NCBI GenBank assembly: GCA_934119935.1
Contig: CAKOSX010000001.1
Location: 332,299-396,298, forward strand
DNA length: 64,000 bases
Source: an uncultured Clostridia bacterium
GTDB taxonomy: Bacteria > Bacillota > Clostridia > TANB77 > CAG-508
Direction: 5' to 3'
In this document: positions 3,768-54,130 of the stretch, in pieces
How the letters are laid out: every line of letters begins with the position of its first letter
How positions within the stretch are numbered: the first letter of the stretch is position 1
Made by a program: the position numbers and the translations under genes
The notes under the pieces: generated by a model
The model's database searches: none
Seen by the model: only the letters and a program-made list of their open reading frames with translations
Told to the model about the DNA's origin: nothing

Positions 3768-4961
3768 ATGGAAGAAATATTTGCAGATTTACACGTACAC
3801 ATAGGAAGAAGCGAAAACGGTAAACCAATAAAAATTACAGCCGCAAGAAGCCTTAATTTTGCAAACATTGCAAAAGAATGTGCCGACAGAAAAGGAATAA
3901 ATATAGTAGGAATTATAGACTGTGCATCACCATATGTTATTGAGGATATTGAGAATTTTCTAAAAACGGGAGATGCATATGAAATTGAAGATGGAGGAAT
4001 AATTTATAAAGACAAGGTTTGTATTTTACTAGGTAGCGAAGTAGAAACATCAGAAGTTGGAAGAAACGGAAAGTGTGGAGCAGCACATAATGTATGCTTT
4101 TTCCCTCATCTGGCAGACATAAAGGGGTTCTCACAAGAAATGAGCCATCATATAAAAAATATAACACTAAGCACGCAACGTTCTAATGTTTCAGGTTATG
4201 AGCTAATTGATATAGTCGAAAAATATAATGGAATTTTAATTCCAGCACACTGTTTTACGCCGTTCAAAAGCTATTATGGCAATTGTGTTGATAGAATGAA
4301 AGACATTTTCAAAGAAAAATTCGATAAGATTTTTGCGATTGAGTTAGGTCTAAGTGCAGATACATATCTTGCAGACATGATATCAGAATTAGAAAATAAG
4401 ACATTTGTTACAAATTCTGATGCACATTCACTACCTAAAATTGCGAGAGAATATAATAAAATGTTGGTAAATGATATAAGCTTTAAAGAAGTTGTAAAGG
4501 CACTAAAGGGAGAGGACGGAAGAAAGGTGTTATGCAACTATGGATTAGATCCTAAATTAGGAAAATACCATAGAACATTCTGCGACAATTGTAATCAAGT
4601 AATAGAAACTAAGGAACCAGTTTCAGAGTGCCCATACTGTGGAAGCAATAAAGTTACATTTGGTGTGTTTGACAGAATAGAACTAATAAAGGACAAAAAA
4701 GACAGCAAAAGTCCAGAAAATAGACCACCATACATATATCAAGTCCCACTAACTTTTATACCTGGAATTGGAAGCAAAACGATAGATAAATTACTAGATA
4801 ATTTTGGTACAGAGATGACCATATTACATAAATTATCAAAAGATGATATAGAAGCGGTAGTTGGCGAAAAAGTAGCAAATGAAATAATTGCTTCGAGAGA
4901 AGGAAAAATGAAAATTCATGCTGGTGGTGGCGGAGTTTACGGAAAAGTGACAGCCGAATAA
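3768..4961 (+). CDS. endoQ: Endonuclease Q (PHP-domain deaminated-base endonuclease, TIGR00375 family)
   Basis: DLHVHIGRS PHP motif; GLDPKLGKYHRTFCDNC Zn ribbon; RPPYIYQVPL; C-terminal HAGGGGVYGK. These are the recalled hallmarks of archaeal/Bacillus EndoQ. Start placed at ATG 3768 with RBS agaaagagg. Confidence 0.75.
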   Translation: MEEIFADLHVHIGRSENGKPIKITAARSLNFANIAKECADRKGINIVGIIDCASPYVIEDIENFLKTGDAYEIEDGGIIYKDKVCILLGSEVETSEVGRNGKCGAAHNVCFFPHLADIKGFSQEMSHHIKNITLSTQRSNVSGYELIDIVEKYNGILIPAHCFTPFKSYYGNCVDRMKDIFKEKFDKIFAIELGLSADTYLADMISELENKTFVTNSDAHSLPKIAREYNKMLVNDISFKEVVKALKGEDGRKVLCNYGLDPKLGKYHRTFCDNCNQVIETKEPVSECPYCGSNKVTFGVFDRIELIKDKKDSKSPENRPPYIYQVPLTFIPGIGSKTIDKLLDNFGTEMTILHKLSKDDIEAVVGEKVANEIIASREGKMKIHAGGGGVYGKVTAE

Positions 4962-8462: not shown

Positions 8463-8536
8463 GCAGATGTAGTTTAGTGGTAGAACTTTGCCTTCCCAAG
8501 GCAATAGTGTGGGTTCGATTCCCATCATCTGCTCCA
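8463..8536 (+). tRNA. tRNA-Gly (anticodon CCC), CCA encoded
   Basis: Acceptor GCAGATG/CATCTGC; anticodon stem TTGCC/GGCAA; loop TTCCCAA. Confidence 0.9.
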
Positions 8537-8590
8537 GAATGAAAAGAGAAATTGGAGTTTTATATAACTTTAATTTTTTTCTTTTTATAA

Positions 8591-8671
8591 GGGAATCGAA
8601 AAGGAGGAGCAGAAATTAGTCCTGAGGACTAATTTCCCGACGCGGCTCGACGATTCCCATCATCTGCTCCA
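8591..8671 (+). other. tRNA 3'-end mimic element, copy 2 (Gly-CCC type)
   Basis: Same core as copy 1, but the 3' part is cgattcccATCATCTGCTCCA, matching the 3' end of tRNA-Gly(CCC) rather than Gly(UCC). Confidence 0.7.
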
Positions 8672-8726
8672 TAAAGTAAAAGAAAAATTAGAGCTTTTTT
8701 AAAACTTTAATTTTTTATTTTTTTGA

Positions 8727-8795
8727 GGCAATCGAAAAGGTGTAATAGAAATTAGTTTGGAAAATTAAATTTTCGATGTGGCTTGGCGATTTTCA
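8727..8795 (+). other. Degenerate third copy of tRNA 3'-end mimic element
   Basis: ggcaatcgaaaaggtgtaatagaaattagtttgg...gatgtggcttggcgattttcat; recognisably the same core but decayed. Confidence 0.5.
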
Positions 8796-17168: not shown

Positions 17169-18218
17169 GTGGATATCACGGTATTAGAAAACAATTTGAA
17201 ATCGGGAAAACTTAATAGTGTGTATTTATTATACGGAGAAGAACGTTTTTTATTGGATAATAGCGTAAAAAAAATAAAAAAACTATTTGGCGAAATGATT
17301 AATGGAATAAACTATATACAAATAGATAGCTCGAATGTATCGGAAATAGTAGCAGATATCGAGACTCCGGCATTCGGATATCCAAAGAAACTTATAATAG
17401 CAAAAGACACTGGGCTATTCCAAAAGGCAAAGAGAGGTAAAAGTACGGCTACTCAAGCCGAGACAAAAAGCAAAAAGGATGAGAACAAGCTAGAAAATAA
17501 ACTTGCTGCTTATTTAGAAGAAAACATAGATCTAATAAACGATTCTGTAATATTGATATTTATAGAGAATGAAGCAGAAAAGAATAATCTATATAAGGAA
17601 ATAGACAAGCTTGGTGGGGTATGCAATTTTGAAAGGCAAAAACCAGCTGAACTTGCAAGAAGAATAAAGCAAATATGTAATGCATATAAAGTAAATATTG
17701 ATTCAGTAACACTAAATTACTTTATTGAAACATGTGGAACTTCATTACAAGATTTGATAAATGAAATAAGAAAGCAAATAGAATATGTTGGAGAGAATGG
17801 CACAATCACAAAGCAAAGTATAGATTTATTAGCAATAAAACAATTCGAAAGCATAATATTTGATTTAACGGATAGTCTTGGCAGAAAAAATATTGCAGAG
17901 GCACTTCAGGTACTAAAAAATTTACTATATGCAAAAGAGCCAATACAGAAAATATTCATAACATTGTATGGTCACTTTAAGAAATTATACATTACAAAAG
18001 TTGCAATTAACGAAAAATTAAATGTAGCAGAAAGCTTAAACTTAAAGCCAAATCAAACATTCTTAGTAAATAAGTACACGATGCAATCAAAATATTTTAA
18101 AGAAGCGGAATTAAGAAAATTATTACAAGAATTTATAGACCTAGATTACAAAGCAAAGAGTGGAGCAATAGACCTAAATGTGGGGCTAGAAGCGGTACTT
18201 TGCAGATATTGCTCATAA
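17169..18218 (+). CDS. holA: DNA polymerase III delta subunit
   Basis: 349 aa; N-terminal LLYGEERFL motif; synteny holA-(rpsT)-gpr as in Bacillus/Clostridium. Confidence 0.75.
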   Translation: MDITVLENNLKSGKLNSVYLLYGEERFLLDNSVKKIKKLFGEMINGINYIQIDSSNVSEIVADIETPAFGYPKKLIIAKDTGLFQKAKRGKSTATQAETKSKKDENKLENKLAAYLEENIDLINDSVILIFIENEAEKNNLYKEIDKLGGVCNFERQKPAELARRIKQICNAYKVNIDSVTLNYFIETCGTSLQDLINEIRKQIEYVGENGTITKQSIDLLAIKQFESIIFDLTDSLGRKNIAEALQVLKNLLYAKEPIQKIFITLYGHFKKLYITKVAINEKLNVAESLNLKPNQTFLVNKYTMQSKYFKEAELRKLLQEFIDLDYKAKSGAIDLNVGLEAVLCRYCS

Positions 18219-18219
18219 A

Positions 18220-18370
18220 TATACAACATAAAGTAAAAAATAAAGAATATAAAATAAAAATAAAGAATATAAAATAAAAATATAAAATATAAAATGTAAA
18301 ATGTAAAATAAAGATATTTAAATAAAAATATTCAAATAAAAACATTCAAATAAAAACATTCAAATGAGAT
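18220..18370. repeat. AT-rich short tandem repeats
   Basis: aaagaatataaaataaaaat x2; gtaaaat x2; (aaaaacattcaaat) x3. Confidence 0.8.
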
Positions 18371-18393
18371 ATAAAAAAGATTAAACAAAAAAC

Positions 18394-32927: not shown

Positions 32928-33719
32928 ATGGACATACCATTGTATACAACTAAACAATTGAAGAAAAAGGAGCATGACTTTTGTCTATGTATTCCAATAT
33001 ATAATGAAGGAAGAAAAATAACAAGTGAATTACAGAAGGCTAATAGCTTTGGTGTAACTAATGTAGTAGATATTGTACTGTTAGATGGTGGCTCTACGGA
33101 CGGCACAACAGATATTGAATTTCTACAAACTAACAATGTAAACACATTAATAGAGATGGAAGAAAAAGGATTATATAGACAATCAGAGGCGCTAAAAGCT
33201 GGATTCGATTTTGCAATTAAAAGAAATTATGCAGGCGTAGTAACAATAGATGGAAACAACAAAGATGGAATAAATAAAGTAATAGACTTTGTAGAAAAGC
33301 TAAAAGAAGGCTATGACTATATTCAAGGTTCCAGGTTTATTGAAGGAGGAACAGAAAGAAATACTCCTCCAATAAGATTGTTTGCCATCAAGTGTATTCA
33401 TGCGCCCATAATTTCTTTTATTTGTAAAAAGAAGTACACAGATACAACTAACTTATTTAGAGGATATTCGATGAAATATTTGCAAGATAATAGAGTGCAA
33501 CCGTTTAGAAAAGTATTCAAATCGTACGAGTTATCTACTTATTTGTCGACCAGAGCCGATCAACTTGGAATGAAAACATGCGAAATACCAGTCGATAGGG
33601 AATATCCCTATACTAAAAAGTATCCTACAAAGGTTGGAAAAGTAAAGGGAAATGCACTTATAATAAAATCGCTTATAGAGGATTTGTTTGGAAAATATAA
33701 TATTAATGGGGAAAAATGA
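32928..33719 (+). CDS. Family 2 glycosyltransferase
   Basis: CIPIYNEG...VLLDGGSTDGT GT2 DxD region; 4-nt overlap with downstream fkp-like gene. Confidence 0.75.
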   Translation: MDIPLYTTKQLKKKEHDFCLCIPIYNEGRKITSELQKANSFGVTNVVDIVLLDGGSTDGTTDIEFLQTNNVNTLIEMEEKGLYRQSEALKAGFDFAIKRNYAGVVTIDGNNKDGINKVIDFVEKLKEGYDYIQGSRFIEGGTERNTPPIRLFAIKCIHAPIISFICKKKYTDTTNLFRGYSMKYLQDNRVQPFRKVFKSYELSTYLSTRADQLGMKTCEIPVDREYPYTKKYPTKVGKVKGNALIIKSLIEDLFGKYNINGEK

Positions 33720-36697
33720 TGAAGAATTATAAAGAAACGTTTATGAGAGAAACTTATAAAGATTGCTGGATGTACTATAAGCAAACATTAGAAAAAAATT
33801 ACGAAAATGTGTGGGATTGGGTGGTTGTAACAGCTTCAAACGATGAGCAAGCCGAATTTTATGAGTCTGAAATAAGTAGCAGAAAAAATGCTGGATTACT
33901 GCCACAAAAAACGAAATTTATAGTAGTTGCAGACATCAAAGGGAAGAGAATTGGTTCTGGTGGTGCAACTTTAAATGTTATAAAGAGAATCAAGGAAGAA
34001 CAAGAAAAGATTGATAATCTAAAAATTTTGGTTTTGCATTCTGGAGGGGATAGCAAAAGAATTCCACAGTATTCTGCGTCAGGCAAGCTGTTTGCTCCAA
34101 TCCAGAGAACATTGCCAGATGGAAGAAGTTCCACCATTTTTGATGAGATATTGATATCGTATTCTGCTATTCCTAGTAGAATGCAGGCTGGAATGCTAAT
34201 ATTATCTGGTGATGTCCTGTTTTTGTTTAGTTGTTTTCAGGTGAATTTGCAATATGTTGATAGTGCAGCAATTTCTACGAAAGCAACAATTGCAGAAGGA
34301 ATTTGTCATGGCGTTTTTGTAACAGACAAAGACAATTACGTAAAAAAATTTTTGCATAAACAGCCAGAACAGGTATTAGAGAATCAGAATGCTATAGACA
34401 AAAATGGATTTGTTGATATAGATACAGGAGCTGTATATTTTAATTCTAAGATTGTTGAGGAGTTGTATAATCTAATTTCGGAAAACGGTGAAACGAATAA
34501 TGACAAATTTAATGAATTCGCAAATGAGAATGTTAGAATAAGTTTGTATAATGATTTTGTATATGTATTATCTAAAGAGGCAACCCTCGAATCTTATTTA
34601 AAAGAAAAGCCAGAAGGTAGATTTTCAAAAGAATTAATTGAATGCAGAAAAAAGATATGGGGTAGGTTGGGCAAATATACTATGAAAGTTATAAAAACAT
34701 ATCCATCAAAATTTATTCATCTTGGAACAAATGCTGAACTTCTTAAATTTTTAAATTCAGAAAAAGAGATATTTAATGACTGGAATTTAGAAAGAAATGT
34801 GTTGTGTAACATAAAAGGCAAAAGCTTCACAACAAATACTTCATACATAGATGAGAACACAATTGTTGGAGATGGATGTTATATAGAACATAGTAGAATA
34901 ATGAACTGCAAAATAGGTAAGAACTCCATAATTTCAAATACCGAGCTGGAAAATGTGGTTGTGCCAAGCAATGTATGCATCAACACATTAAAGCAGAAAG
35001 ATGGTAAGTATGTTACAAGAATATGGGGAATAGAAGATAATGCCAAGAAGAACATTAAAGAATCAACACTGTTTGGTAATTCTATTAAAGAGAAATTCCT
35101 TAATATTGACAACAATCAAAATATGGAACTATGGAATGCAAAACTCTATGTTCCATGTGATACTCGTAAGGATAGTGTATTTTATGCACTGCTATTGTAC
35201 AATATTTGTAATGGAAAAACGTCAAAAACAGATGAAGAAAAATATCTTTGCAGACCAAGAGTAAGTCTAAGTGAAAGCTTTGAAAACTGTGATATAAATT
35301 ACTTAGTTCAACAACATAAATTATTAGAAGTAGAAATAAGAAGCCTGCAGTTTATAAAAAAGATAATGGATAAACAACCACTAAAAAAGAATATAGATAT
35401 ATTGCTAAATAGTCCTGATGTAAATTTGCAAATAGAAAATTTGCAAACAAAGGCCATTGAAGAAGAACCGTATGTTAGGCTAAGAATATATATGGGACTG
35501 GAATTAATTAATAAAACAATAAAGAAGTATCAGTGTGGATATTTTGAAAATATGTGTTATGACGAAATCGAAAACATGATAAGTCAACATGATAGTGCAT
35601 GGATTAGCAACAAGCACCGAAAAGAAAGCACGGTAGAAATGCCAATAAGAGTCAACTTTGGAGGAGGATGGTCAGACACACCCCCATATTGTAACGAAAA
35701 TGGAGGAAGTGTGTTAAATGCCGCATTTTTGCTAAACGGTAAATTTCCTATAAGATGCAGTGTAAAAGAAATAAAAGATAGTAAAATAATACTAAGAAGT
35801 ATAGACTTAAATATCGAAAAAGAATTTACAAAGATAGAGCAGCTAAAAGATTGCGGCAACATAAACGATGAATTTATATTGCTAAAATCGGCACTTGTAA
35901 TTAGCGGAGTAATTCGAGAGAGTGACAAAAATATAGAAGACGTCATACAAAGAATCGGTTGTGGAATATGTTTAGAGACAGATGTGACACAGGTACCTAA
36001 GGGCTCTGGATTAGGAACGAGCAGTATACTTGCCGGTGCATGCATTAAAGCAATATATCAATTCTTTAATGTTGAAATATCGGATGAAGAAATATGTTAC
36101 AAAGTGCTAGAACAAGAACAGCTGATGGAAACTTGCGGTGGATGGCAGGATCAAATTGGCGGAATATTGCCGGGGGTAAAATATACTTGCACAGAAGCGG
36201 GAAATAAACAAAAATTTAACATAGAAAGCCTACAATTATCAGAAAAAATAATTAAACAAATTAATGAAAGAATGGTGCTAATTTATACTGGACAACAGAG
36301 AATAGCAAAAAATCTACTGCGAGAAATTATGAACGACTACATAATAAACAATGAAAACACTTGCAAAACAATAAGCAAAATAAAAATGATGGCAGGCAAA
36401 ATGAAGAAAAGCTTAGAAGAAAACAACTTACAAGAATTTTGCAAATTACTTAATGAACATTGGAAACTATCAAAAAAATTAGATGCAGGATGCACGAACA
36501 CATGCATAGACCAAATTTTAAATGCATGTGATGACTTAATAGATGGCAGGATGATTTGTGGAGCCGGTGGCGGAGGCTTTCTTCAAGTAGTGACGAAGCA
36601 AAATGTAAAGAAGGAAGAAATAGCAAATAGAATTAGCCAAGTATTTCAAGAGAGTGGAGTACAAGTTTACAATGTAGAAATATGGAAAAATAGATAA
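33716..36697 (+). CDS. fkp: Bifunctional L-fucokinase / fucose-1-phosphate guanylyltransferase (Fkp-like)
   Basis: 993 aa; N-terminal GDP-fucose pyrophosphorylase-like domain; C-terminal GHMP kinase ATP motif PKGSGLGTSSILAGA. Confidence 0.7.
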   Translation: MMKNYKETFMRETYKDCWMYYKQTLEKNYENVWDWVVVTASNDEQAEFYESEISSRKNAGLLPQKTKFIVVADIKGKRIGSGGATLNVIKRIKEEQEKIDNLKILVLHSGGDSKRIPQYSASGKLFAPIQRTLPDGRSSTIFDEILISYSAIPSRMQAGMLILSGDVLFLFSCFQVNLQYVDSAAISTKATIAEGICHGVFVTDKDNYVKKFLHKQPEQVLENQNAIDKNGFVDIDTGAVYFNSKIVEELYNLISENGETNNDKFNEFANENVRISLYNDFVYVLSKEATLESYLKEKPEGRFSKELIECRKKIWGRLGKYTMKVIKTYPSKFIHLGTNAELLKFLNSEKEIFNDWNLERNVLCNIKGKSFTTNTSYIDENTIVGDGCYIEHSRIMNCKIGKNSIISNTELENVVVPSNVCINTLKQKDGKYVTRIWGIEDNAKKNIKESTLFGNSIKEKFLNIDNNQNMELWNAKLYVPCDTRKDSVFYALLLYNICNGKTSKTDEEKYLCRPRVSLSESFENCDINYLVQQHKLLEVEIRSLQFIKKIMDKQPLKKNIDILLNSPDVNLQIENLQTKAIEEEPYVRLRIYMGLELINKTIKKYQCGYFENMCYDEIENMISQHDSAWISNKHRKESTVEMPIRVNFGGGWSDTPPYCNENGGSVLNAAFLLNGKFPIRCSVKEIKDSKIILRSIDLNIEKEFTKIEQLKDCGNINDEFILLKSALVISGVIRESDKNIEDVIQRIGCGICLETDVTQVPKGSGLGTSSILAGACIKAIYQFFNVEISDEEICYKVLEQEQLMETCGGWQDQIGGILPGVKYTCTEAGNKQKFNIESLQLSEKIIKQINERMVLIYTGQQRIAKNLLREIMNDYIINNENTCKTISKIKMMAGKMKKSLEENNLQEFCKLLNEHWKLSKKLDAGCTNTCIDQILNACDDLIDGRMICGAGGGGFLQVVTKQNVKKEEIANRISQVFQESGVQVYNVEIWKNR

Positions 36698-36778
36698 AAC
36701 ATTAGAACATTATGTTAGAAAAATAACAAAATGGTTGGTAAAAAATATGTTGAAAAAAGCTAAAAAATTGACAACTTT

Positions 36779-36810
36779 GTTGCATGGAAAATTTATTAAT
36801 GGTATACTTT
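36779..36810 (+). promoter_or_regulatory. Promoter of phase-variable surface protein gene
   Basis: TTGCAT-17 nt (ends TGg)-TATACT, extended -10. Confidence 0.5.
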
Positions 36811-36841
36811 AGGCAAAGTAAAAACTTAGGAGGAAAGAGGA

Positions 36842-38825
36842 ATGAATAAGAAAATAAAAGAGGCTGAAAACCTTATGGCTGTACACACACACACACACAC
36901 ACGGACATTTTAAAGAAAAGGGAATAACATTAATTGCATTAGTAATCACAATTGTTGTTCTACTAATTCTAGCAGGAATAAGTTTGAACTTAGTACTTGG
37001 TGAGAACGGCATTGTTACGAAGGCGAAAGATGCAAGAGAACAAACAATAATAGGGCATGAAAAAGAGCAAATAAACTTAGCATATTCAGCATGTAAAACA
37101 AGAGAAAACTTTGATGATTTAGTTACAGCAAGTGAACTCGAAACAGAAATGAAAAAGTCAAATGAAAATGTATCTGTAGCAGCAGACGGAGACAATCTTG
37201 TTATTACGTTTGAAGAGACGAAGCACCAATACAACATTGGACAAGATGGAAGTTTTAAAGAAAATACTAATCAAAATATTGATTGGAGCACATTAGAGCC
37301 AGGGTTATACAAGACGGGAACATCAGAGATGATAAAATCTTGGCAAGAATTGATTGATGATGGAGACATAACAGTAGAAGGAACAAAGCTTAATGAAATT
37401 AAGACGATTTTTAGTTATGGCCAAGATGTAACTATGCCTCTGGCAGGAGATTTGATTATATCAAATGATATGACAGAAATTGGTAGCCTTACAGGAGGAA
37501 AAGCAGCTTGCTATGTTGGAAAATCAGGCATTACAGGCGTATATGTTCCATCAAGTGTAAAAAAGTTGACAAGTAGTAGTCAGTATGGCTATGGTGGCTT
37601 TTTTGCTATGTTTGATATGAAGAAAATTGTTATTGAAGAAGGGCTGGAAGAAATAGGAGATTATTCGTTTGCTAGTTGTTACAATCTTATAGAGGTAGAA
37701 TTACCAGATAGTGTTACAACAGTTGGTGACTATGCTTTCGCATGGAGCAGTAATATAGTGAATGTAAAAATACCGGATAATGTTATACTTGGCAAAGCAT
37801 GCTTTATAAGTAATAGATTAACCCAAATTCCTCAAAACATAACATCGATTGGTGAAACTATGTTTGCTAACTGTGAAGAATTGAAGGTGGTCAATATTCC
37901 AAATGGTATTACATCAATTGGAGCTAGAGCTTTTTCCGGTTGTGGTAATATAACGAGTATTAATATTCCAAGTAGTGTAAAAGTAATAGGAGAAGGAGCC
38001 TTTTTATACTGTGGTAATATAACGAACATTAATATTCCAGCTAGTGTAAAAGTAATAGGAAGAGAAGCTTTTTCCCGTTGTGGTAATATAACGAGTATTA
38101 ATATCCCAAATAGTGTAAAGAAAATAGGAGCTGAGGCTTTCAAGGATTGTGTGAACCTATCTGACATAAATGGATTTGACAATGCAATTTCAGTTGGTCT
38201 AAGGTCTCTAGATGGAACAAAGTGGTATAATAGTCAACCAGATGGAGAGGTATATATAGGAAAGACATTGTATAATTATAAAGGAACAATGTCAGCCGAT
38301 ACTAGATTAAAAATAAAAGATGGGACAGAAAATATTGCTGATAGAGCTTTTGAAGACTGTACAGGGCTAATTGAAGTGACACTACCATCTAGTGTAAAGA
38401 ATGTAGGAGAATATTGTTTTTATAATTGCAAAAATTTATCTGATGTAAATGTAAATGAAAGCATTGAGAGAATTGGATGGTGTGCTTTCAGCGGAACAAA
38501 ATGGCAAGATAGTCAAAATGATGGGTATATATACATAGGAAATGTACTTTATTATTATAAAGGTAGTGAAAGACCAAAAGAAGTACAGGTCAAGGATGGG
38601 ACAATCAGTATTACGGAAAGTGCTATTTATCCAGATACTATAATCATACCTAAAAGCGTGAAATATATAGGAGAAGGAATATTAGGAAGTAGGTGGAGTT
38701 GGAGTACATCACATAATTGTGTTGTAAATTATATGGGAACAGAAGAGGAATGGAATTCAATTGAAATTGAAGAATCAAATTTTTCTGGCAATCTTACCAT
38801 AAACTACAATTATACTGGAGAATAA
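36842..38825 (+). CDS. Prepilin-like-leader BspA-type leucine-rich repeat surface protein, phase-variable, currently frameshifted OFF
   Basis: ATG 36842 with RBS aggagg reads MNKKIKEAENLMAVHTHTHTRTF-stop. The -1 frame continues GHFKEKGITLIALVITIVVLLILAGISLNLVLGENG and LRR_5 repeats (IP.SV.SIG..AF..C). No start codon in the long frame. Confidence 0.7.
36883..36902 (+). repeat. (AC)10 dinucleotide tract inside 5' coding region
   Basis: gtACACACACACACACACACACgg at codons 15-21 of the ORF starting at ATG 36842. Confidence 0.95.
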
Positions 38826-38831
38826 TTTAAA

Positions 38832-40532
38832 GTGAACAAACTAAAAAAATATCTAACTAAAGAAAATATTATAATAACTATAGTCCTACTAGTTGGAGCT
38901 ATTATATCTTCCGTTTTTATGTTCAAGCAGGTATACAACGGAATAGATACCGCATATCACATGTCAAGAATAATCGGCATAACAAACAGCTGGAAAGCTG
39001 GAGATTTACTAGCATACATACATTTGAACACTAGTGGATATGGCTATGCAATGGGTTTCTTTTATAGCAATTTATTTATTATTCTACCTAGCATTTTATA
39101 TATGCTAGGTATGAACATAATTTTAGTATATAAAATATTTATACTAATGTGCAGCATTGCAACTGCAATAACCATGTACATATGCACAAAACAAATAAGC
39201 AAAAGCAAGTATGCAGCAACTATATCAGCATTTTTATACACAACTTGTAGCTATAGAATAATTACTCTTGTTGTGAAGGCTTTTGTTGGCGAGATTCTAA
39301 GCTTCATTTTTATCCCACTAATAATTTTAGGATTGTACCAATTAATTTTTGGAGATTCAAAAAAGTGGTGGATTTTTACTATTGGATTTGTTGGAATTTT
39401 GAATTCTAATCTGGTAATGACGGAAATTATGATTTATATTTCTGCTGTTTTTGTATTGTGTAATATTAAAAAGATTATAAAGGATAAGGGCAGACTCAAG
39501 GGTTTCATAAAAGCGACTGTTTTAGCATTGTTAGTAAGTGCAATGTTTTGGATGCCTATGATTGAACAGCTTATAAAATCAACATTTCACATGAAAGATG
39601 GAATGAACATGTATAGGCCTACATGGTGGCTGTTAAGTTTTGGGGACTTATTTAACGGGCTGATGAAGCTCGGAACCCAAATTACGCCTGCTTATGGACT
39701 TGGTTTTATATTTATTGTGATAGCAATATTACGTTTAGCAATAAGAAATGTAGATGCACAAAAGCTAAAATTTTGCGATATATCAATTTTAGCAGGATTG
39801 GTGTTATTGCTATGCATGACAAAATTTTTTCCATGGAAATACTTAAAAACTTTAGGAGGAATGATTCAATTTCCAAGTAGACTAGAAGTGCCAGCGGCAG
39901 CATTTTTCTCAATTGCATCTGGAATGATCTGCCACTACTTAACGGAGAAAAAAACAATATTAAGAAGAATTATTTTTGGAATAATCATAATATATCAGAT
40001 TGGATTTGTGTTTATGTGCATAAAATCTTGTGAAGATGCTCTGATTGAAGTTGAGCTATACAGAGGACTTGATAGTGTATATATTGATGAGAATTTTGAG
40101 TACGATATTTGCGATGGCATGTATTTGCCGGAAGGCGCAAACGTACAAAGTAAACTGATAAGCCACGGAAGGCATGAAGAAAAAGAAGATAAATATAAGA
40201 CTAATAATAGCGAGTGTAATTTCAAATATGCAAAGAATGGACTTAAAGTAAACATATCATTTGAAAACAATAAAGAAGTCAATACTTATATAGAAGTTCC
40301 AATTTATTACTATTATGGTTATGTAGCAGAAAATCCAGAAAATAACACAAAATATAAAATCGAAAAAGGAGACGAAGGCGTAATTCGAGTATATTTGGAA
40401 AATTCGGAATCTGGAACAATACAAATATATTATAAAACTACAATAGTTCAGAAATTATCAATTATTATTACAATTGTAACATTATTGGGAATAATAATTT
40501 GCAAAAAAAATCAGCATAATGGGCATTTGTAA
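38832..40532 (+). CDS. Polytopic membrane protein, putative GT-C type glycosyltransferase (YfhO/O-antigen-ligase-like)
   Basis: 566 aa, 10+ TM with C-terminal extracytoplasmic domain; GTG start 6 nt after LRR gene stop. Confidence 0.5.
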   Translation: MNKLKKYLTKENIIITIVLLVGAIISSVFMFKQVYNGIDTAYHMSRIIGITNSWKAGDLLAYIHLNTSGYGYAMGFFYSNLFIILPSILYMLGMNIILVYKIFILMCSIATAITMYICTKQISKSKYAATISAFLYTTCSYRIITLVVKAFVGEILSFIFIPLIILGLYQLIFGDSKKWWIFTIGFVGILNSNLVMTEIMIYISAVFVLCNIKKIIKDKGRLKGFIKATVLALLVSAMFWMPMIEQLIKSTFHMKDGMNMYRPTWWLLSFGDLFNGLMKLGTQITPAYGLGFIFIVIAILRLAIRNVDAQKLKFCDISILAGLVLLLCMTKFFPWKYLKTLGGMIQFPSRLEVPAAAFFSIASGMICHYLTEKKTILRRIIFGIIIIYQIGFVFMCIKSCEDALIEVELYRGLDSVYIDENFEYDICDGMYLPEGANVQSKLISHGRHEEKEDKYKTNNSECNFKYAKNGLKVNISFENNKEVNTYIEVPIYYYYGYVAENPENNTKYKIEKGDEGVIRVYLENSESGTIQIYYKTTIVQKLSIIITIVTLLGIIICKKNQHNGHL

Positions 40533-42135: not shown

Positions 42136-42255
42136 TGTTAATTATTTCAGCTATATTTCAATTAGATTTTAGTTACATTACAATTTGGCTAAAATATTGA
42201 AACAACCCGTATCATGTGCTACAATATACTTTATAAACTGTATGTAGGGGGAAAA

Positions 42256-43392
42256 ATGATGATAAATTTAAACCAAGGAAGAAAATATAAACAACTAAAC
42301 AAAGGAATAACTCTGGTGGCTCTTGTTGTAACGATTGTAGTTTTGCTTATATTAGCAGGAATAAGCATTAATCTTTTATTGGGTGAGAATGGCATAATAA
42401 AAAAAGCGAAAGAAGCGAGAGAAAAAACAGCAGAGGGCAAAACAAATGATATGCTTGGAATGAACCAGCTTATACAAGATATGTATGACTTAGAAAATTC
42501 CGAGAACAAAAAAGAGAATGATAAGGGTGATGACAAATCTGACGAAGTAAAAAAGTATAAAGTTACTATTCAATTTATTAATAGAGAAAATCAAAGCATA
42601 GTAAATTTTGGTAGTATCGAAATCTATGAAGGAGAATCAATTGGTCAAGATGCGAAGCAAATTGCAACCATTAGTGGAAAAAATGAAACAGAAAATGTTA
42701 TTTCTTTAGCTAAAGGCACATATACTGTAAGATGTTTGAAAGCACCTGATGGATACAAAAAAACAGCAGAAGATATTACTTTTAATGTGGATGAAAATGA
42801 TGAAAATAAATGGAAGATTGAAGTTACAAACGGTTCTTCAATATTACCTTCGACTGGTTCTTCTAGTATATACAGTATAACAGTTGAAGACGGAAGTAGT
42901 AACATTTCTACAAAAGGTGTTCAGTCTTTAACAGTACAATATGAGGGGCGTGAAGGAGTTAGATTAGAAATTATACCAATTGGAGAATATGATGAAAATA
43001 CGAAAAAAATTGTTGTAGATGATGAAATCGCCTCAATACTCGGAATAGAAAAAGAATTTGATAATAGAATAGTTGACTCGTCAAAAGCTGAAGATGTATA
43101 TCAGTATGTTAAGAAAAAACAGTTAATTGGAATTTCTAGTATAACCGACAGTGATGGGCGTTCTACGTTTTCGGAACTTGTGCCAAATATATATTTTGTA
43201 AAAACATCGTTGAGTAGCAAGTGTGATTTTATAATTAGTATGCCACTTTATGTGAAGGTGCCCGATGAAGAAGTATGTTATTATAATAGTGTTACTTTAA
43301 CACACGAAAAAAGAGGTACAGATAAGGAAGATGATTACTTTCTTGGAATTACAGACAATATAGATCAACCAATACCACCAATAAAAAAATAA
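42256..43392 (+). CDS. Prepilin-like-leader protein with two CnaB/SpaA-type pilin-like domains
   Basis: Leader KGITLVALVVTIVVLLILAGISINLLLGENGII; CnaB signature GTYTVRCLKAPDGYKK...ITFNV; second domain DGRSTFSELVPNIYFVKT; internal LPSTG. Confidence 0.6.
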   Translation: MMINLNQGRKYKQLNKGITLVALVVTIVVLLILAGISINLLLGENGIIKKAKEAREKTAEGKTNDMLGMNQLIQDMYDLENSENKKENDKGDDKSDEVKKYKVTIQFINRENQSIVNFGSIEIYEGESIGQDAKQIATISGKNETENVISLAKGTYTVRCLKAPDGYKKTAEDITFNVDENDENKWKIEVTNGSSILPSTGSSSIYSITVEDGSSNISTKGVQSLTVQYEGREGVRLEIIPIGEYDENTKKIVVDDEIASILGIEKEFDNRIVDSSKAEDVYQYVKKKQLIGISSITDSDGRSTFSELVPNIYFVKTSLSSKCDFIISMPLYVKVPDEEVCYYNSVTLTHEKRGTDKEDDYFLGITDNIDQPIPPIKK

Positions 43393-46402: not shown

Positions 46403-48016
46403 ATGAAAGAAAAAAATATGCAAAACAAAAGCATTGAGATTGGAAAATCACAAGAAAAGAAAACAAGAGCAAAAGGAATAACGCTAATTGCCTTAGTAAT
46501 AACAATAGTTATACTACTAATATTAGCAGGAATAAGCATAAACCTGGTATTAGGCGAAAACGGAATAATATCAAAAGCTCAAGAATCAAGGCTAAAGTCA
46601 GACAATGCAACAGTTTCAGACTCATTAAAAATGATGATAGCAAGATACTCAATAGACGACATGGGCGAAGGCAAAACAGACGTACTTGCAAGACTGAATT
46701 CTGATGGAATAACAGACGCAAACGATGTAATAAATGTACCAGTTTTAGTCGGGGAAAAACTTGGAACAGGAAATGGTAGTGGAACAAAAGATGTGTATGT
46801 TATAAAAGATAACAAATTATACTACTATGACAAAAAAGGCGAAAAAACAGACCTTGGAGATATAGCCAACTTGCAATTTAGCGGAGACAAACAAGAATCT
46901 GGAATATTTGTAATTACATCAGATGGAACAGTATACATGAAAGATAGGCAGTCTGGAGTTTATAGCGATGAATATGAGCGTTCTACAAAAGAGGTTATAA
47001 TTCCGAGTGAAATAAATGGAATTAAAGTAAAAAAACTTGGAAATTATATGTTCTGTAACTACATTGCTTTAGAAACTGTTGGAATTCCGGATGGAGTAAC
47101 TGAAATTGGAAATTATGCTTTTTATGGTTGTAGCAAAATTGACAATATTGTTATGCCAAACAGTGTTGAATGGATTGGAAAAGGTGCTTTTTGTGAATGT
47201 AGTGAAATTGCTAATATTATAATACCAGATGGTGTTACTAGCATAGGAGATCTTGCTTTCGCAGGGTGTTCTGGCTTGGAAAATATAAAAATGTCGGAAA
47301 ATATACAATATGTTGGAGATTTAGCTTTTGCAGGAACCAAATGGCTAAAAACACTTCCAGAAGGACTACTTTATTTTGGGAATATTCTTTATGCTTATAA
47401 TGGAGAAATACCACAAGGTACAACTATAGAAATTAAAGATGGAGTTACAAGAATTAATGGAGAGGCTTTTTCAAATCAAAAGGGGCTAATAGCCATAAAA
47501 ATACCAGATAGCGTTAAAAAAATTGGAGGAAGTGCTTTTAGTGGATGCAGTGAACTGACAAGCATAATAATACCTGATAGCGTAACAAGTATAGGAGAAG
47601 ATGCTTTTGAAGATTGTACTAAATTATCAAGTATAGATATTTCTGATAGTATAGAATATGTAGGATATGATGCTTTTCAAAGGACAGCATGGCTTAACAA
47701 TCAAAACGATGGAGTGGTTTATATTGGAAAAATATTATACTGCTATAAAGGAGAAATGCCAAGCAATACAACTATAACGGTAAAAGAGGGAACTACAAGT
47801 ATTGCTGGAATCTGTTTTGCAGAATGTACAAACCTTATAAGTATTACAATCCCAAAGAGCGTAACATATATAGGAATGGGAGCATTTTATATGTGTGATA
47901 ATTTAAAAACAATAAATTATAAAGGTTCAAAGGAAGATTGGAATAATATAACAATTGAAATACAGGCACCTGATGGATCTGGAATAACTGCAACTATCAA
48001 TTATAATTATAAATAA
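46403..48016 (+). CDS. Prepilin-like-leader BspA-type leucine-rich repeat surface protein
   Basis: RAKGITLIALVITIVILLILAGISINLVLGENGII leader; multiple IPDSVTSIGD.AF..C LRR_5 repeats; RBS ttaggagg. Confidence 0.65.
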   Translation: MKEKNMQNKSIEIGKSQEKKTRAKGITLIALVITIVILLILAGISINLVLGENGIISKAQESRLKSDNATVSDSLKMMIARYSIDDMGEGKTDVLARLNSDGITDANDVINVPVLVGEKLGTGNGSGTKDVYVIKDNKLYYYDKKGEKTDLGDIANLQFSGDKQESGIFVITSDGTVYMKDRQSGVYSDEYERSTKEVIIPSEINGIKVKKLGNYMFCNYIALETVGIPDGVTEIGNYAFYGCSKIDNIVMPNSVEWIGKGAFCECSEIANIIIPDGVTSIGDLAFAGCSGLENIKMSENIQYVGDLAFAGTKWLKTLPEGLLYFGNILYAYNGEIPQGTTIEIKDGVTRINGEAFSNQKGLIAIKIPDSVKKIGGSAFSGCSELTSIIIPDSVTSIGEDAFEDCTKLSSIDISDSIEYVGYDAFQRTAWLNNQNDGVVYIGKILYCYKGEMPSNTTITVKEGTTSIAGICFAECTNLISITIPKSVTYIGMGAFYMCDNLKTINYKGSKEDWNNITIEIQAPDGSGITATINYNYK

Positions 48017-48035: not shown

Positions 48036-49487
48036 ATGAACAAAAAGATTTGTTTATCAACCATTTTAATGACATTAATCATGCTAATTACAATGGTAAC
48101 AAGTGTATATGCTGCAAATGAAGATGTAACGCTTGTTAAAGTAAAGGACAACGTATGTACGATTAAGTTAGGAGATGACGGAGAAGTTATTAAACAACTT
48201 ATTTCTGTGGATAACGAGAAAAAAGAAGTTACTTTGCAAATTGATGTAAAGAATTTAAAGAGTAAGGAAGAAGAAATTCAACCAACAGAAATGTTTCTAG
48301 TTATCGATGATTCTAAGAGTATGTCTGATAATACTTTGTCAAGTGGAAAGACTAGAAAAGAGGCTGTGTTTACAGCTGCAAAGACTTTAGCAAAGCAAAT
48401 TTTAGAAGAACAACCAAGTACAAAGATTGGTGTTGTAAGTTTCTCATCAAACTCTGAAATTTCTAAAGAAGGAACACTAGAGGATGCAAAGCTTGTAATA
48501 GAGCCAAGTAGTAAAATCAGCGATATTACAACCGCAATAGATAATATCGAAACAACTGGTGGAAGAACTAATATTGATGCAGGTTTGCAAACTGCAAAAG
48601 CACATTTTTCAACAGATACAACACTTAATAAGTATTTAATATTGTTGACTGATGGAGTTCCAAATAACTCAGTTGGAACATCTTCAACATATTCTGGAGA
48701 CACTGCAAAAAATACAAAAGCTACTTTACAATCAATTAAAAATAGCGGAATAAATATTGTAACTGTTATGACAGGTGTTAACTCAACATATCAACCAGAC
48801 CCAACCGGAGCTGTATCTGCAGATGCCGCTGGAAAAACATATAAAGACCTAGCAGAAGAAATTTTCGGAACACAAGAAGCTCCAAGTTACGGAAAATTCT
48901 ATTATGTTTCAGATGATTCTGTTGAGGATACGATTACGAAAGTGGTTTATCAAGATGTAAGAACTGTAATAGAAAATGAAATTAAGGATATTACTGTTGT
49001 TGACTATTTCCCATTAGATATTGTTGAAAATTATGATTTTGAAATTTTTGAAGAAGCCAATATTGGAACTGTAACTCCAACAGTAGATACAGCCAATAAT
49101 ACCATCACATGGAAAATTACAACTTTAAAAGCTGGAGAGACAGCTTCGTTTAAATATAAATTAAAATTAAAAGAAAAATTTAATGAAAAAATTATAAATG
49201 TGGAGACTCCAACAAATCAAAAGCTTGATGTTAACTACACTGGAACAGATGGGAAAACTAAAAATGTATCATCTGATGTTTCTCCTTCGATAATGTTAAA
49301 GAAGGACGAAGTGCCAGAACCAACTCCAGAACCAACGCCGGAGCCAACACCAGAACCTAAGCCAGACAATACAATCGCACCAGATCCAATTCCACAAACA
49401 GGAGATAACACAGCATTTGTTGTATTCGGAATCGCTGTGGCAGGAATTGCGTTAGCAGTATGTATAAAGAATAGAAATAACAAATAA
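48036..49487 (+). CDS. Secreted von Willebrand factor A domain protein with Pro-rich linker and PQTG sortase cell-wall sorting signal
   Basis: Sec signal MNKKICLSTILMTLIMLITMVTSVYA; vWA LVIDDSKSMS..GGRTNIDAGL..LLTDGVPN; (EPTP)4; IPQTGDNT + hydrophobic + KNRNNK. Confidence 0.75.
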   Translation: MNKKICLSTILMTLIMLITMVTSVYAANEDVTLVKVKDNVCTIKLGDDGEVIKQLISVDNEKKEVTLQIDVKNLKSKEEEIQPTEMFLVIDDSKSMSDNTLSSGKTRKEAVFTAAKTLAKQILEEQPSTKIGVVSFSSNSEISKEGTLEDAKLVIEPSSKISDITTAIDNIETTGGRTNIDAGLQTAKAHFSTDTTLNKYLILLTDGVPNNSVGTSSTYSGDTAKNTKATLQSIKNSGINIVTVMTGVNSTYQPDPTGAVSADAAGKTYKDLAEEIFGTQEAPSYGKFYYVSDDSVEDTITKVVYQDVRTVIENEIKDITVVDYFPLDIVENYDFEIFEEANIGTVTPTVDTANNTITWKITTLKAGETASFKYKLKLKEKFNEKIINVETPTNQKLDVNYTGTDGKTKNVSSDVSPSIMLKKDEVPEPTPEPTPEPTPEPKPDNTIAPDPIPQTGDNTAFVVFGIAVAGIALAVCIKNRNNK

Positions 49488-49781: not shown

Positions 49782-51713
49782 ATGTACGATGAAAAGAAAT
49801 TAGCGAAGGCTAAAGATATATTAAAGAAAAACAATCAAGAGAAAATTTTGATGTTTTTGAATAAGCTGGACGACGATAAGAAGGAAAGCTTGGCAGAACA
49901 GATTCTGAATTTGGATTTTGAACAGTTGAATAGATTGTATGCAGAAACAAAGACAGAGCCAGAAATATTGGAAAAGAAAATTGAACATACGAAATATGTC
50001 GATGAATATAAAATATCAGAAGAGATAAGAGAAAAGTATACAAAATTAGGTGAAAATGTAATAAAAAATAATCAGTATGCTGTTGTTACAATGGCAGGAG
50101 GTCAGGGCACAAGACTTGGACACAAAGGTCCAAAGGGAACATTTTTGCTAGATGTAATTCCAGAGCCTAAATATTTGTTCCAAATATTGGCCGAAAATTT
50201 GGAGAAAGCAAACAGAAAATATGGTGTTACATTACCTTGGTTTGTAATGACAAGCACAGAGAACAATGAAGAAACAGTAAAATTCTTTAAAGAGCACAAT
50301 TACTTTGGATATCCAGAGGAAAGCATTGAATTTTTTGAACAGGGAAATTTACCATTGTTATCTTTCGATGGAAGTTTAATATTGGATAAAGATTGTTCTA
50401 TTAAAGAAGCTGCAGATGGCAATGGTTGCATATATGCTGCCATGGCAAAGGCTGGAGTAATTGAAAAAATGAAGAAAATGGGCATAAAGTGGATCTTTAT
50501 AGGCTCAGTTGATAATGCTTTGTTAAATATGGTAGATCCAATTTTAGTTGGATTAACAATAGATCAGAAACACGAAATCGCATCAAAATCAGTTGCTAAG
50601 GCAAATCCACATGAAAGAGTTGGAGTATTTTGCAAAATTAATTCTGTTCCATCAGTTATAGAGTACAGCGAGTTGCCAGAAAAAATGGCAGAGGAGACCG
50701 ATAAGGATGGAGAGCTATTGTATGGAGAAGCACACATCATGTGCAACTTATTTAGCATAGATGCACTAGAAAAAGTATCAAAAGTAAAATTGCCATACCA
50801 TGTTGCAGTAAAAAAATCTGGATATATGGACGAAAATCTTGAATTTGTTGAGGCGGGAGAACCAAATGCATATAAATTTGAAGCTTTTATATTCGATGCT
50901 TTCAACTTTTTCGACGACATATCAATATTGAGAGGAAAAAGAGAATTCGATTTTGCACCAGTAAAAAATAAGGCTGGAAACGACAGTCCAGACACTGCAA
51001 GGGCATTGTACAATAATCTGGCAAGATGCAAGATAGAAAACCTATACAATTTGGATGAAACAATAGCAAAAGAATTGTTGGCAAAATATACATATCCATG
51101 GGAAGTGCTACCACACATAAGTGACTTTATCTTAGAGCTTGGAGAAAAACTTCCAAAAGACGAATACAAAAAAATTGGCGACGATGTATGGATTCATAAA
51201 TCAGCTACAGTATTTGAAACAGCATATATCCATGGACCAGCAATAATTTGCAAAGATGCTGAAATAAGACATTGCGCATTCATACGTGGAAAAGCGATAG
51301 TAGGAGAAGGCGCCGTTGTTGGAAACTCAACAGAGCTAAAAAATGTAATATTATTCAACAAAGTACAAGTGCCACATTACAACTACGTTGGAGACTCAAT
51401 ACTTGGATACAAAGCACACATGGGAGCAGGTTCAATCACGTCAAACGTAAAATCAGACAAAAAACTCGTAAAAATAAAATGTGGGATAAAACAAGAAGCT
51501 GAACAAGAGACAGAGCAAATAGAAACAGGATTAAAGAAAATTGGAGCAATGCTTGGCGACAACGTAGAAGTAGGATGCGGAAGCGTACTAAATCCTGGCA
51601 CAATAATAGGAAAAAACACAAACATATATCCTTTGTCATCAGTAAGAGGAGTAGTTCCTGCAAACAGCATATACAAAAGCAAAACAGGAACAGAAATAGT
51701 AGAAAAGAAATAA
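49782..51713 (+). CDS. Fusion of eukaryotic-type UDP-sugar pyrophosphorylase (UDPGP/UAP1-like) with C-terminal left-handed beta-helix (hexapeptide) domain
   Basis: VVTMAGGQGTRLGHKGPKGTF UDPGP signature; C-terminal 200 aa of imperfect hexapeptide repeats (IHGPAIICKDAEIRHCAFIRGKAIVGEGAVVGNST). Confidence 0.7.
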   Translation: MYDEKKLAKAKDILKKNNQEKILMFLNKLDDDKKESLAEQILNLDFEQLNRLYAETKTEPEILEKKIEHTKYVDEYKISEEIREKYTKLGENVIKNNQYAVVTMAGGQGTRLGHKGPKGTFLLDVIPEPKYLFQILAENLEKANRKYGVTLPWFVMTSTENNEETVKFFKEHNYFGYPEESIEFFEQGNLPLLSFDGSLILDKDCSIKEAADGNGCIYAAMAKAGVIEKMKKMGIKWIFIGSVDNALLNMVDPILVGLTIDQKHEIASKSVAKANPHERVGVFCKINSVPSVIEYSELPEKMAEETDKDGELLYGEAHIMCNLFSIDALEKVSKVKLPYHVAVKKSGYMDENLEFVEAGEPNAYKFEAFIFDAFNFFDDISILRGKREFDFAPVKNKAGNDSPDTARALYNNLARCKIENLYNLDETIAKELLAKYTYPWEVLPHISDFILELGEKLPKDEYKKIGDDVWIHKSATVFETAYIHGPAIICKDAEIRHCAFIRGKAIVGEGAVVGNSTELKNVILFNKVQVPHYNYVGDSILGYKAHMGAGSITSNVKSDKKLVKIKCGIKQEAEQETEQIETGLKKIGAMLGDNVEVGCGSVLNPGTIIGKNTNIYPLSSVRGVVPANSIYKSKTGTEIVEKK

Positions 51714-52003
51714 GTACAAACCTGTACAAACCGGGGACGGAGCAGAAAATGTACACTCGGAAAATGTTAAATGTACAAACCGGGGACGGAGAAAAAATTG
51801 TACACATAGAATTTATTAAATAAAAAGTACTAATTCATATTTTTAAAGCAAAAACGGAAGCTCGCCTTTTGAGGAGTCCAAAGGAGCTCTGACCAAGAGC
51901 AACGTGTTGTGGCTTTATAAAATATGAATTAGTACTTAAATTTTAAGCAAAATGTACATTTTTTTCTCCGTCCCCGGTTTGTACCGGTTTGTACAGATTT
52001 GTA
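51714..52003. repeat. Composite about 290-bp repeat: 2 direct GGGGACGGAG/TGTACA units, 111-bp palindromic core element (+ orientation), 1 inverted unit
   Basis: Core 51826..51936 flanked by perfect 24-bp arms aagtactaattcatatttt; outer arms ccGGGGACGGAG x2 left, CTCCGTCCCC right. Confidence 0.8.
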
Positions 52004-52015
52004 TTAGCTTGTTGT

Positions 52016-53432: not shown

Positions 53433-53834
53433 ATGAAAAAAGAACTTATTATAGTAATTATAATAGTGATAGCAATAATTATAATAGATACTGTAACCCA
53501 TAATTATACCACGTATAGCTTTGAAAAAATAAACAATGAATTAGAACAAATAAAAGAAATAAGCAAGAAAATCGATGATCAAGAAAAAAACTCACAACAA
53601 GAACTTCAAGAAAAAATAAAAACAATGGAAGAAGATTGGAAAATAATAAATAGAAAAACAGCATTTTACATTGAGCATGAAGAGCTAGAAAAAGTAAATG
53701 CGTCAATGATAAAATTCAAAAGCTATATACAGTTAGAAGAATACACAGAAGCAATACCCGAACTAGAAAATTGCAAGTACATTTTAGACCATATACGAGA
53801 AAAAGAAAAAATGCAAATAATAAATCTATTCTAG
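53433..53834 (+). CDS. DUF4363-like protein (usual partner of DUF421)
   Basis: 133 aa, N-terminal TM, coiled-coil; gene pair architecture. Confidence 0.5.
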   Translation: MKKELIIVIIIVIAIIIIDTVTHNYTTYSFEKINNELEQIKEISKKIDDQEKNSQQELQEKIKTMEEDWKIINRKTAFYIEHEELEKVNASMIKFKSYIQLEEYTEAIPELENCKYILDHIREKEKMQIINLF

Positions 53835-54130
53835 TACAAACCGGTACAATTCGGTACAATTTGGGGACGGAGCTAAAAATGTACAATTGGAAAATATTAA
53901 ATGTACAAACTGGGGACGGAGCTAAAAATGTACATTAAAAAACTGTAAATACAAAAGTACTAAGTCATTTCTTATAAAGCTACGACACGTCGTTCTTGGT
54001 CGGAGCTCTTTCGGGCTCATCAAGAAGCGAACTTCCGTTCTTACTTTATAAGAAATGACTTAGTACTTAAATTTTTGAAAAAATGTACAATTTTTTCTCC
54101 GTCCCCGAATTGTACGCCGAATTGTACAAA
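53835..54130. repeat. Composite about 295-bp repeat, second copy, core element inverted relative to copy at 51.7k
   Basis: Core 53956..54066 with perfect 24-bp arms agtactaagtcatttcttataaag; inner 66 nt is reverse complement of the 51.8k core; outer arms same polarity as first copy. Confidence 0.8.

Follow-up and report, generated by a model that had tools for sequence, protein, structure and literature searches.

In Ca. Mycoplasma girerdii, dinucleotide repeats, including a CA(10) tract, lie within BspA-like genes in such a way that the consensus sequence is OFF and the gain of one unit turns the gene ON (Costello et al. 2017, Sci Rep 7:3764; PMC5476646). Here, we describe a locus of similar design in a 64-kb stretch of contig CAKOSX010000001.1 from an uncultured human-gut Clostridia bacterium, where an (AC)10 tract shortly after the start codon at 36842 leaves a leucine-rich repeat (LRR) gene out of frame. 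"The window" refers to this whole 64-kb stretch and coordinates are its positions; ACn denotes a tract of n units, and ON and OFF denote tract states that do or do not join the start codon to the LRR frame. On the basis of the tract, its reading frames and its variation among public assemblies, we consider the locus very likely to be a slipped-strand translational phase-variation switch, driven by a simple sequence repeat (SSR), on a surface protein gene. As in M. girerdii, the dinucleotide repeat is found in a BspA-type LRR gene, a frameshift with a premature stop produces the OFF state, and one additional unit restores an intact protein. The evidence is metagenomic for both, but consists here of between-sample consensus contigs, whereas for M. 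girerdii it was obtained at the level of reads within one sample. M. girerdii is moreover a Mollicute with ~28 BspA-like genes and 20 dinucleotide repeats, in contrast to one tract in 64 kb of gut Clostridia DNA, and the window tract, unlike those of M. girerdii, belongs to a conserved portable leader module 14 codons past the start.

The match to M. girerdii is even closer than that to oipA and related outer-membrane protein genes of Helicobacter pylori, in which a CT repeat in the 5′ signal-peptide region sets the frame (PMC10564699). Both systems place a dinucleotide repeat in 5′ coding sequence and use the unit number to turn a surface adhesin-like protein ON or OFF. They differ in that H. 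pylori is a Gram-negative pathogen with unrelated Hop outer-membrane proteins, for which no shared leader module is reported, and in that the state of the H. pylori switch has been validated by experiment. A report on Mycoplasma mycoides subsp. capri describes an (AG)12 tract in a type III methyltransferase gene (PMC3498834). This is likewise a coding-region dinucleotide repeat with premature termination in one length state, yet the target is a methyltransferase (phasevarion-type) and the tract lies outside a start-proximal leader module.

For pil1 and pil3 of Streptococcus gallolyticus, experiments have shown that a premature terminator is or is not disrupted by ribosomes according to the GCAGA repeats of a leader peptide (Danne et al. 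2014, PLoS Pathog 10:e1003860; PMC3894217). Loci of related species described below, and not the window locus, share with pil1 the predicted arrangement of a short upstream open reading frame (ORF), an intrinsic terminator and a surface gene. In contrast to pil1, the window tract is fused to the structural ORF with no terminator and displays neither of two hallmarks of attenuation; further differences are the dinucleotide unit (AG, AC or TA versus GCAGA) and the targets, which are pilin-like-anchored proteins as opposed to sortase pili. The literature searches made gave no report of repeat-driven phase variation in uncultured gut Clostridia; in the papers that they found, work on phase variation in gut commensals centres on DNA inversions (invertons), and most work on slipped-strand switches concerns pathogens and mycoplasmas. 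By its sequence features, the window locus qualifies as an SSR contingency locus, a type of switch that is already known.

The AC tract and its reading frames

The window was scanned for SSRs with minimum unit numbers of 9 (mononucleotide), 6 (di-), 5 (tri-), 4 (tetra-) and 3 (penta- to heptanucleotide). The sole simple repeat of the window is (AC)10, located at exactly 36883..36902 on the + strand and 14 leader codons past ATG 36842, and no 20-mer within two mismatches of (AC)10 arose in 100 dinucleotide-preserving shuffles. The tract is thus a perfect SSR inside the 5′ coding region, of a length that proves unstable among the relatives considered below. The elements of the locus are, in order (nt, nucleotides; aa, amino acids):

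36780..36808, + strand: putative promoter read from the sequence, TTGCAT (36780-85), 17-nt spacer, TATACT (36803-08)
36828..36833, + strand: ribosome-binding site (RBS) AGGAGG, 8 nt 5′ of ATG 36842, kept in all alleles and in the paralog at 46403
36842..36882, + strand: start codon and leader codons MNKKIKEAENLMAV, the 3′ part of the leader being gctgaaaaccttatggctgt; the conserved "switch leader"
36883..36902, + strand: hypermutable element (AC)10; n mod 3 = 2 (8, 11, 14) ON, 9 and 10 OFF
36903..36913, + strand: post-tract motif GGACATTTTAA with the OFF-frame stop TAA at 36911-13 (AC10 frame); GHF in the ON frame
36903..38825, + strand: open frame of the predicted surface protein gene body, 640 codons plus stop 38823-25, unreachable from the ATG as sequenced
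36921..36986, + strand: pilin-like hydrophobic N-terminal segment GITLIALVITIVVLLILAGISL, a candidate membrane anchor or class III-like signal
36984..36986, + strand: TTG, earliest canonical start in the LRR frame, at which the 613-aa product of gene callers begins (NLVLGENG)

Inspection of the three frames reveals how unit number determines the product. As sequenced, with AC10, reading from ATG 36842 yields 23 residues, MNKKIKEAENLMAVHTHTHTRTF, before the stop TAA 36911..36913, and an AC9 reading stops after 27 residues. The LRR frame is open from 36858 to its stop at 38823..38825, reads ...YTHTHTHGHFKEKGITLIALV... (also given as ...YTHTHTHGHFKEKGITLIALVITIVVLLILAGISLNLVLGENG...), and has as its earliest ATG, GTG or TTG the TTG at 36984, within the hydrophobic segment. 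With AC11 or AC8, GGA 36903 enters the ATG frame and the leader is fused to GHFKEK, and with AC9 or AC10 no fusion results. That is to say, a change in repeat number moves the gene between truncated (AC10, AC9) and in-frame (AC11, 661 aa) states. A preliminary description of this DNA had located the (AC)10 tract at the same positions, had read the OFF peptide from ATG 36842 behind its RBS and had noted the absence of an ATG, GTG or TTG ahead of the leader in the LRR frame, all of which our analysis reproduces; its prediction that AC11 or AC8 is ON and AC9 or AC10 OFF agrees with a natural AC11 allele. Its frame label of "-1" needs correction to +1 (or, equivalently, -2) with the ATG frame as reference, which leaves its conclusions as they were.

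The TTGCAT/TATACT pair is a candidate promoter that is absent from the list of a consensus scanner, its -35 hexamer matching the consensus at only 3/6 positions; the pattern TTGCA-N17/18-TATACT also occurs 5′ of the paralog at 46403 and of every allele of the locus in other contigs. Two other readings of this region were rejected. An ATG-initiated ORF on the opposite strand (36809..37237, 142 aa) merely overlaps the conserved N-terminus, and an alternative genetic code was dismissed on the grounds that long ORFs are normal under table 11.

In the mechanism that we propose, the conserved promoter and strong RBS would drive translation from ATG 36842, and the ribosome would run into the (AC)n tract 14 leader codons on. 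With 10 units it would stop at TAA 36911 after 23 residues, and with 9 units after 27; with 11 or 8 units, the leader would be in frame with GHFKEK-GITLIALV, giving an anchored LRR protein (661 aa at AC11). Strand slippage at replication, by plus or minus one AC unit, would shift the gene among the three frames.

Tract length in close relatives

The ON protein was reconstructed and used as query to find homologs in close relatives, and contigs were then fetched via neighbouring or identical proteins. Each assembly represents one consensus per sample, and the comparison is therefore between samples. The window's own lineage is represented by the following contigs, given with aligned length, differences from the window, tract and state:

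L006 (= L091; ERZ28615761): 8,982 bp, 0 mismatches, one 2-nt gap; AC9, OFF
L008: 6,998 bp, identical to the window; AC10, OFF
L092: 4,842 bp, identical to the window; AC10, OFF
L007: 7,084 bp, 5 mismatches; AC10, OFF
L119 (ERZ27287408): 11,986 bp, 1 mismatch plus a 2-nt AC gap; AC11, ON

Assemblies ERZ27287368, ERZ28615457 and ERZ4559737 carry AC10. The backgrounds of AC9, AC10 and AC11 match at 99.93-100% identity across 5-12 kb, with two tract-length changes in 20 nt versus six substitutions in ~39.9 kb of aligned flanks. Repeat number thus varies far more often than the flanks among very close relatives (0-5 substitutions per 5-12 kb). The AC11 protein predicted from the window equals, residue for residue, the 661-aa public protein P0166, encoded on contig L119. 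The suggestion in the preliminary description that AC units be counted in other isolates could accordingly be pursued with public assemblies, which hold AC9, AC10 and AC11 in this lineage, such that the tract is not fixed at AC10; these three lengths on one background, together with the natural 661-aa fusion, lend strong support to its phase-variation reading. Of the proteins built from the window allele for AC5, AC8, AC11 and AC14, an exact-sequence look-up recovered AC11 alone; the other three are absent from the collection, as are ON versions of the L001, L004 and L103 alleles.

Contig names indicate human gut metagenomes, some of them Hadza, and the three length states come from independent human gut metagenomes. 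JGI metagenomes gave 0 matches to the window flanks TTATGGCTGTAC..ACGGACATTTTAAAGA, and all sightings of the species come from the ENA, Logan and NCBI collections. Its nearest named relatives are uncultured Clostridia metagenome-assembled genomes, Clostridium sp. CAG:245 and Clostridium sp. 26_22. Whole-AC-unit slippage during replication is the presumed mutational mechanism, and switching within a clone or population, with its rate and reversibility, is likewise presumed. The selective agent could be host immunity, phage or niche. For metagenomic time series, the AC count at this one locus offers a concrete marker of surface-antigen switching.

Retention of the out-of-frame gene

Beyond the window's own lineage, further alleles carry the tract in varied forms:

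L001-3: AC10; protein 86% identical to that of the window
L004: (AC)3AT(AC)6; OFF
L099: (AC)3AT(AC)7; ON, forming with L004 an OFF/ON pair in a second lineage
L103-106: (AC)3GG(AC)6; OFF
L005: AC11; ON, with a different C-terminal domain
L093: AC4; OFF
L009/L010: sister leader (MKNKIKKAENLMAV), (AC)4GC; ON
L094-96, L100-102: sister leader (MKNKIKKAENLMAV), (AC)3GC; OFF

The locus is also a mosaic hot spot, with at least five leader types in the population (window versus L005, L009, L094-L098 and proteins P0001-P0165): the tract-bearing type A, A' (AVHTRGHF), B (AVHTDNF), C (MMEKKMQEAESFKAV...) and D (MKKKRNLGITL). Differing C-terminal LRR cassettes stand behind a near-invariant stalk of ~170 residues, and strains carry one to three tandem genes. 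Many strains have tract-free leaders (types B, C and D), and all of these leaders are in frame with the body.

The most serious alternative to a switch is a decaying pseudogene, in which the tract is a hot spot of loss, the OFF state is in effect never left and the occasional in-frame alleles survive from before the loss. Several observations weigh in its favour and against a working switch. Tract-type alleles are called OFF on ~51 contigs and ON on 6, where unbiased three-state slippage would give ~2/3 OFF. Short or interrupted OFF tracts, namely AC4, (AC)3GC, (AC)3AT(AC)6 and (AC)3GG(AC)6, would revert slowly and look like stabilised loss of function, and the frequency of the tract-free in-frame leaders implies that the species needs no switch at this locus. 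The state of the OFF genes themselves points the other way. Every OFF allele checked at the DNA level is open to the normal C-terminus (...NYNYTGE; ...FEFEK in L094) at synonymous divergence (dS) of 0.1-0.6, with no second inactivating lesion in the 1.9 kb of any of them, and the Nei-Gojobori ratio of nonsynonymous to synonymous divergence (dN/dS) between OFF alleles is 0.22-0.37. The ORF is thus kept functional despite frequent OFF states, and such ratios are those expected of a gene whose expression is frequent enough for purifying selection to act on it; recombination with expressed paralogs could contribute, and divergence imported into OFF alleles from such paralogs may lower dN/dS without selection, a further point on the side of decay. 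The occurrence of AC9, AC10 and AC11 on essentially identical 9-12 kb implies recent changes in both directions from the modal length, and decay would not leave long perfect tracts of differing units at one conserved point of the leader across many species. The outcome named in the preliminary description as fatal to a switch, fixation at AC10 with accumulated lesions, does not hold, as lengths vary and the OFF ORFs are intact. Taken together, we find decay unlikely and interpret the locus as a functional switch whose usual state in the gut is OFF; some lineages would be drifting to locked OFF, and others are tract-free and locked ON.

A second alternative, that protein is made from AC10 regardless, through a non-canonical start, frameshifting by the ribosome or slippage of RNA polymerase at the AC repeat, is highly improbable. 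The LRR frame does contain CTG (36864, 36879) and ATA, ATT and ATC codons upstream of the anchor, and heterogeneous transcripts would be compatible with the sequence. Against this, the frame has no ATG, GTG or TTG before 36984, the only strong RBS fits ATG 36842, no slippery heptamer or stimulatory structure is present, and Rfam gave no match at the locus. The tract-free alleles, all with the leader in frame with the body, argue that the functional frame is that of ATG 36842. To our knowledge, transcriptional slippage is known for long homopolymers and not for AC repeats. Use of a start within the LRR frame, which the preliminary description had also listed as contrary to a switch, finds no support in a frame that appears to offer no usable start codon. 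Least probable of all is an artefact of sequencing or assembly: library polymerase chain reaction can give stutter of plus or minus one unit at dinucleotide repeats and the contigs were made by several different assemblers, yet at least seven assemblies made independently in different studies (the window, L001-3, L007, L008 and L092) agree on AC10, both the reads and the k-mers given in contig names (k = 119-141) greatly exceed the 20 nt of the tract, consensus calls follow the read majority, and all differences are whole AC units.

Predicted protein

In the AC11 product of 661 aa, a hydrophobic pilin-like anchor is followed by ~170 residues of conserved stalk and by an LRR domain of the BspA type. 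The body matches Pfam LRR_5 (PF13306, BspA type) in three stretches at 234.7 bits versus a gathering cut-off of 27.7 (E = 2.6e-70), which places it within the BspA-type LRR family, and its best stretch spans residues 297-419. NCBIfam gave partial matches only, below cut-off, to the LRR adhesin HupY/LrrG.

The hydrophobic segment GITLIALVITIVVLLILAGISL also heads 94 genes in related loci. It had been called a prepilin-like leader, and the resemblance is indeed present; membership among type IV prepilins or pseudopilins is another matter, as the Pfam N_methyl model (PF07963; G-[FILM]-T-L-x-E) scores 16.8 bits versus a cut-off of 21.2. In the anchor sequence G-ITLIA-LV, an alanine occupies position +5 after the cleavage-site glycine, where prepilins have a conserved glutamate. 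The tract encodes a (His-Thr)n stretch that precedes the anchor, and variation in the length of this stretch should therefore be neutral for the mature or exposed protein. Surface exposure, membrane anchoring and an adhesin-like function are presumed from these features.

Gene callers report from TTG 36984 a 613-aa product (P0122) that is found on at least 22 contigs, including an NCBI record, and lacks most of the anchor. This product is probably a gene-caller artefact of the OFF state, and its presence on >20 contigs would amount to a systematic annotation error. Some ~19 further contigs with the 613-aa call lie outside the set whose tract lengths were read.

Leader-plus-tract cassettes in related species

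A contig scan for the first 164 aa of the protein filled up with matches to a common word, IALVITIV, and the 80 loci listed, all from other species, share the N-terminal anchor at 35-78% identity. Scanning these 80 loci for SSRs revealed many with long dinucleotide tracts, (AG)10-14, (AC)10-11 or (TA)16, right after a homologous short leader, M..K..A(E/K)(S/N/T)L..V (DNA ...GCTRAAARCCTTNNGNNTGT), to which the window leader MNKKIKEAENLMAV is itself homologous. A second metagenome scan contributed 12 more contigs, 11 of which could be parsed and carry (AG)8-18. In total, the module was found at ~25 loci of related species with (AG)8-18, (AC)10-11 or (TA)16, and all dinucleotide tracts of at least 8 units in the related loci, of which L011-L090 alone make up ~0.6 Mb, fall within such modules. 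The recurrence of the leader-plus-tract module argues for selection on the tract itself.

In the usual layout, the RBS, ATG and leader are followed in order by the tract, CTACACTTTAG, a spacer of 30-130 nt, a hairpin and the surface protein gene. The CTACACTTTAG motif, to which the post-tract GGACATTTTAA of the window is homologous, stops two frames at once. The hairpins have dG values of -13 to -27 kcal/mol and a T-run, the downstream gene has its own RBS and ATG, and exactly one of the three leader frames ends inside the hairpin in every related locus with a hairpin mapped. Loci of this attenuator type (L033, L035, L044, L045, L059, L063, L066, L069, L083, L107-109, L111, L112, L114, L116 and L118) carry (AG)10-18, (AC)10 or (TA)16 in a short upstream ORF that precedes a pilin-like-anchored surface protein gene; seven are predicted ON and ten OFF. 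Among near-twins, the L107 (AG18) leader stops 69 nt before the hairpin and that of L111 (AG16) stops inside.

Fused cassettes also occur elsewhere. L043 (~3860-4000) carries a compound (TA)4(CA)5 tract in frame with its gene, and L110 (- strand, tract 7820, AG10) and L115 (- strand, tract 461, AG11) are both out of frame, with linkers before the anchor of ~95 and ~130 residues, respectively. The window's post-tract GGACATTTTAAAG is homologous to CTACACTTTAGTAAA of the related loci, such that the window locus looks like a cassette joined directly to its gene. Attenuation was rejected as a mechanism for the window locus itself, where no + strand terminator is predicted within 36600-39000 and the tract is fused to the structural ORF.

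On balance, these layouts favour a portable, clade-wide cassette that phase-varies a large repertoire of pilin-like-anchored surface proteins in two wirings. The cassette would consist of an RBS, a leader of ~12 codons (M..K..A(E/K)(S/N/T)L..V), an interchangeable AG, AC or TA tract and ACAYTTTAR with an immediate stop in one frame. In the first wiring, in-frame fusion would create a translational switch (window, L005, L043, L110 and L115). In the second, the cassette would form an upstream ORF and act as an attenuation switch, its one long frame taking ribosomes into an intrinsic terminator. The recurrence of the cassette, often with a terminator, suggests a distribution of repeat-controlled attenuation that extends far beyond the one example from streptococci. 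If the cassette is indeed clade-wide, pil1-type attenuation, in the literature found only for S. gallolyticus, would be a common regulatory device of human gut commensals, and fused and attenuator wirings would interconvert in evolution. A simple pattern would suffice to mine it genome-wide, and the two-wiring cassette is a more interesting lead than the window switch itself.

Three contigs of related metagenome-assembled genomes, L029 (4781-4804), L057 (2283-2304) and L059 (6568-6599), end 1-30 nt from a cassette tract. Assemblies may break at such tracts, possibly owing to reads heterogeneous in tract length.

Genomic neighbourhood

The window is chromosomal low-GC Firmicute DNA, with genes for RecG, Hsp33, RsmB/F, a P-type ATPase and tRNAs; over its whole length, Rfam returned four tRNAs only. 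A fucose-pyrophosphorylase/GHMP-kinase gene (33716..36697) lies 5′ of the LRR locus, and two further genes bear on it:

38832..40532, + strand: YfhO-family membrane protein gene (Pfam YfhO), 7 nt past the LRR stop
46403..48016, + strand: paralogous LRR_5 gene with no repeat tract, constitutively in frame

The YfhO-family gene is present beside the locus in all related contigs and is probably co-transcribed with the LRR gene. Polarity in the OFF state, arising from untranslated mRNA, might on a speculative view lower its expression. The paralog at 46403 has the same 5′ untranslated region (aacttaggagga) and anchor as the LRR locus; its leader is similar, as the preliminary description had claimed. 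A third gene with a GITLIALV-type N-terminus (42214..43392) encodes a SpaA/prealbumin-like domain, and the paralog is followed by a gene (48036..49487) whose VWA protein product contains an Ig domain of the GBS104-like tip-pilin type. The genes at 42214 and 48036 suggest a larger set of pilin-like-anchored adhesins.

Other repeats of the window lie away from the LRR locus. An intergenic element of ~300 bp is present in two copies (51703..52007 and 53831..54115), 78-84% identical and 2.13 kb apart, which consist of internally inverted GTACAAACCGGGGACGGAG...TGTACA units and flank a DUF421 (YetF) gene and two small ORFs; the element may be a repeat resembling a miniature inverted-repeat transposable element or a large hairpin. 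At 8516..8771, a 136-bp tandem duplication (1.9 copies, 80% identical) starts in the last bases of the tRNA at 8463..8533, and an A-rich array with periods of 7, 14 and 27 nt occupies 18217..18372, after an ORF that ends at 18218.

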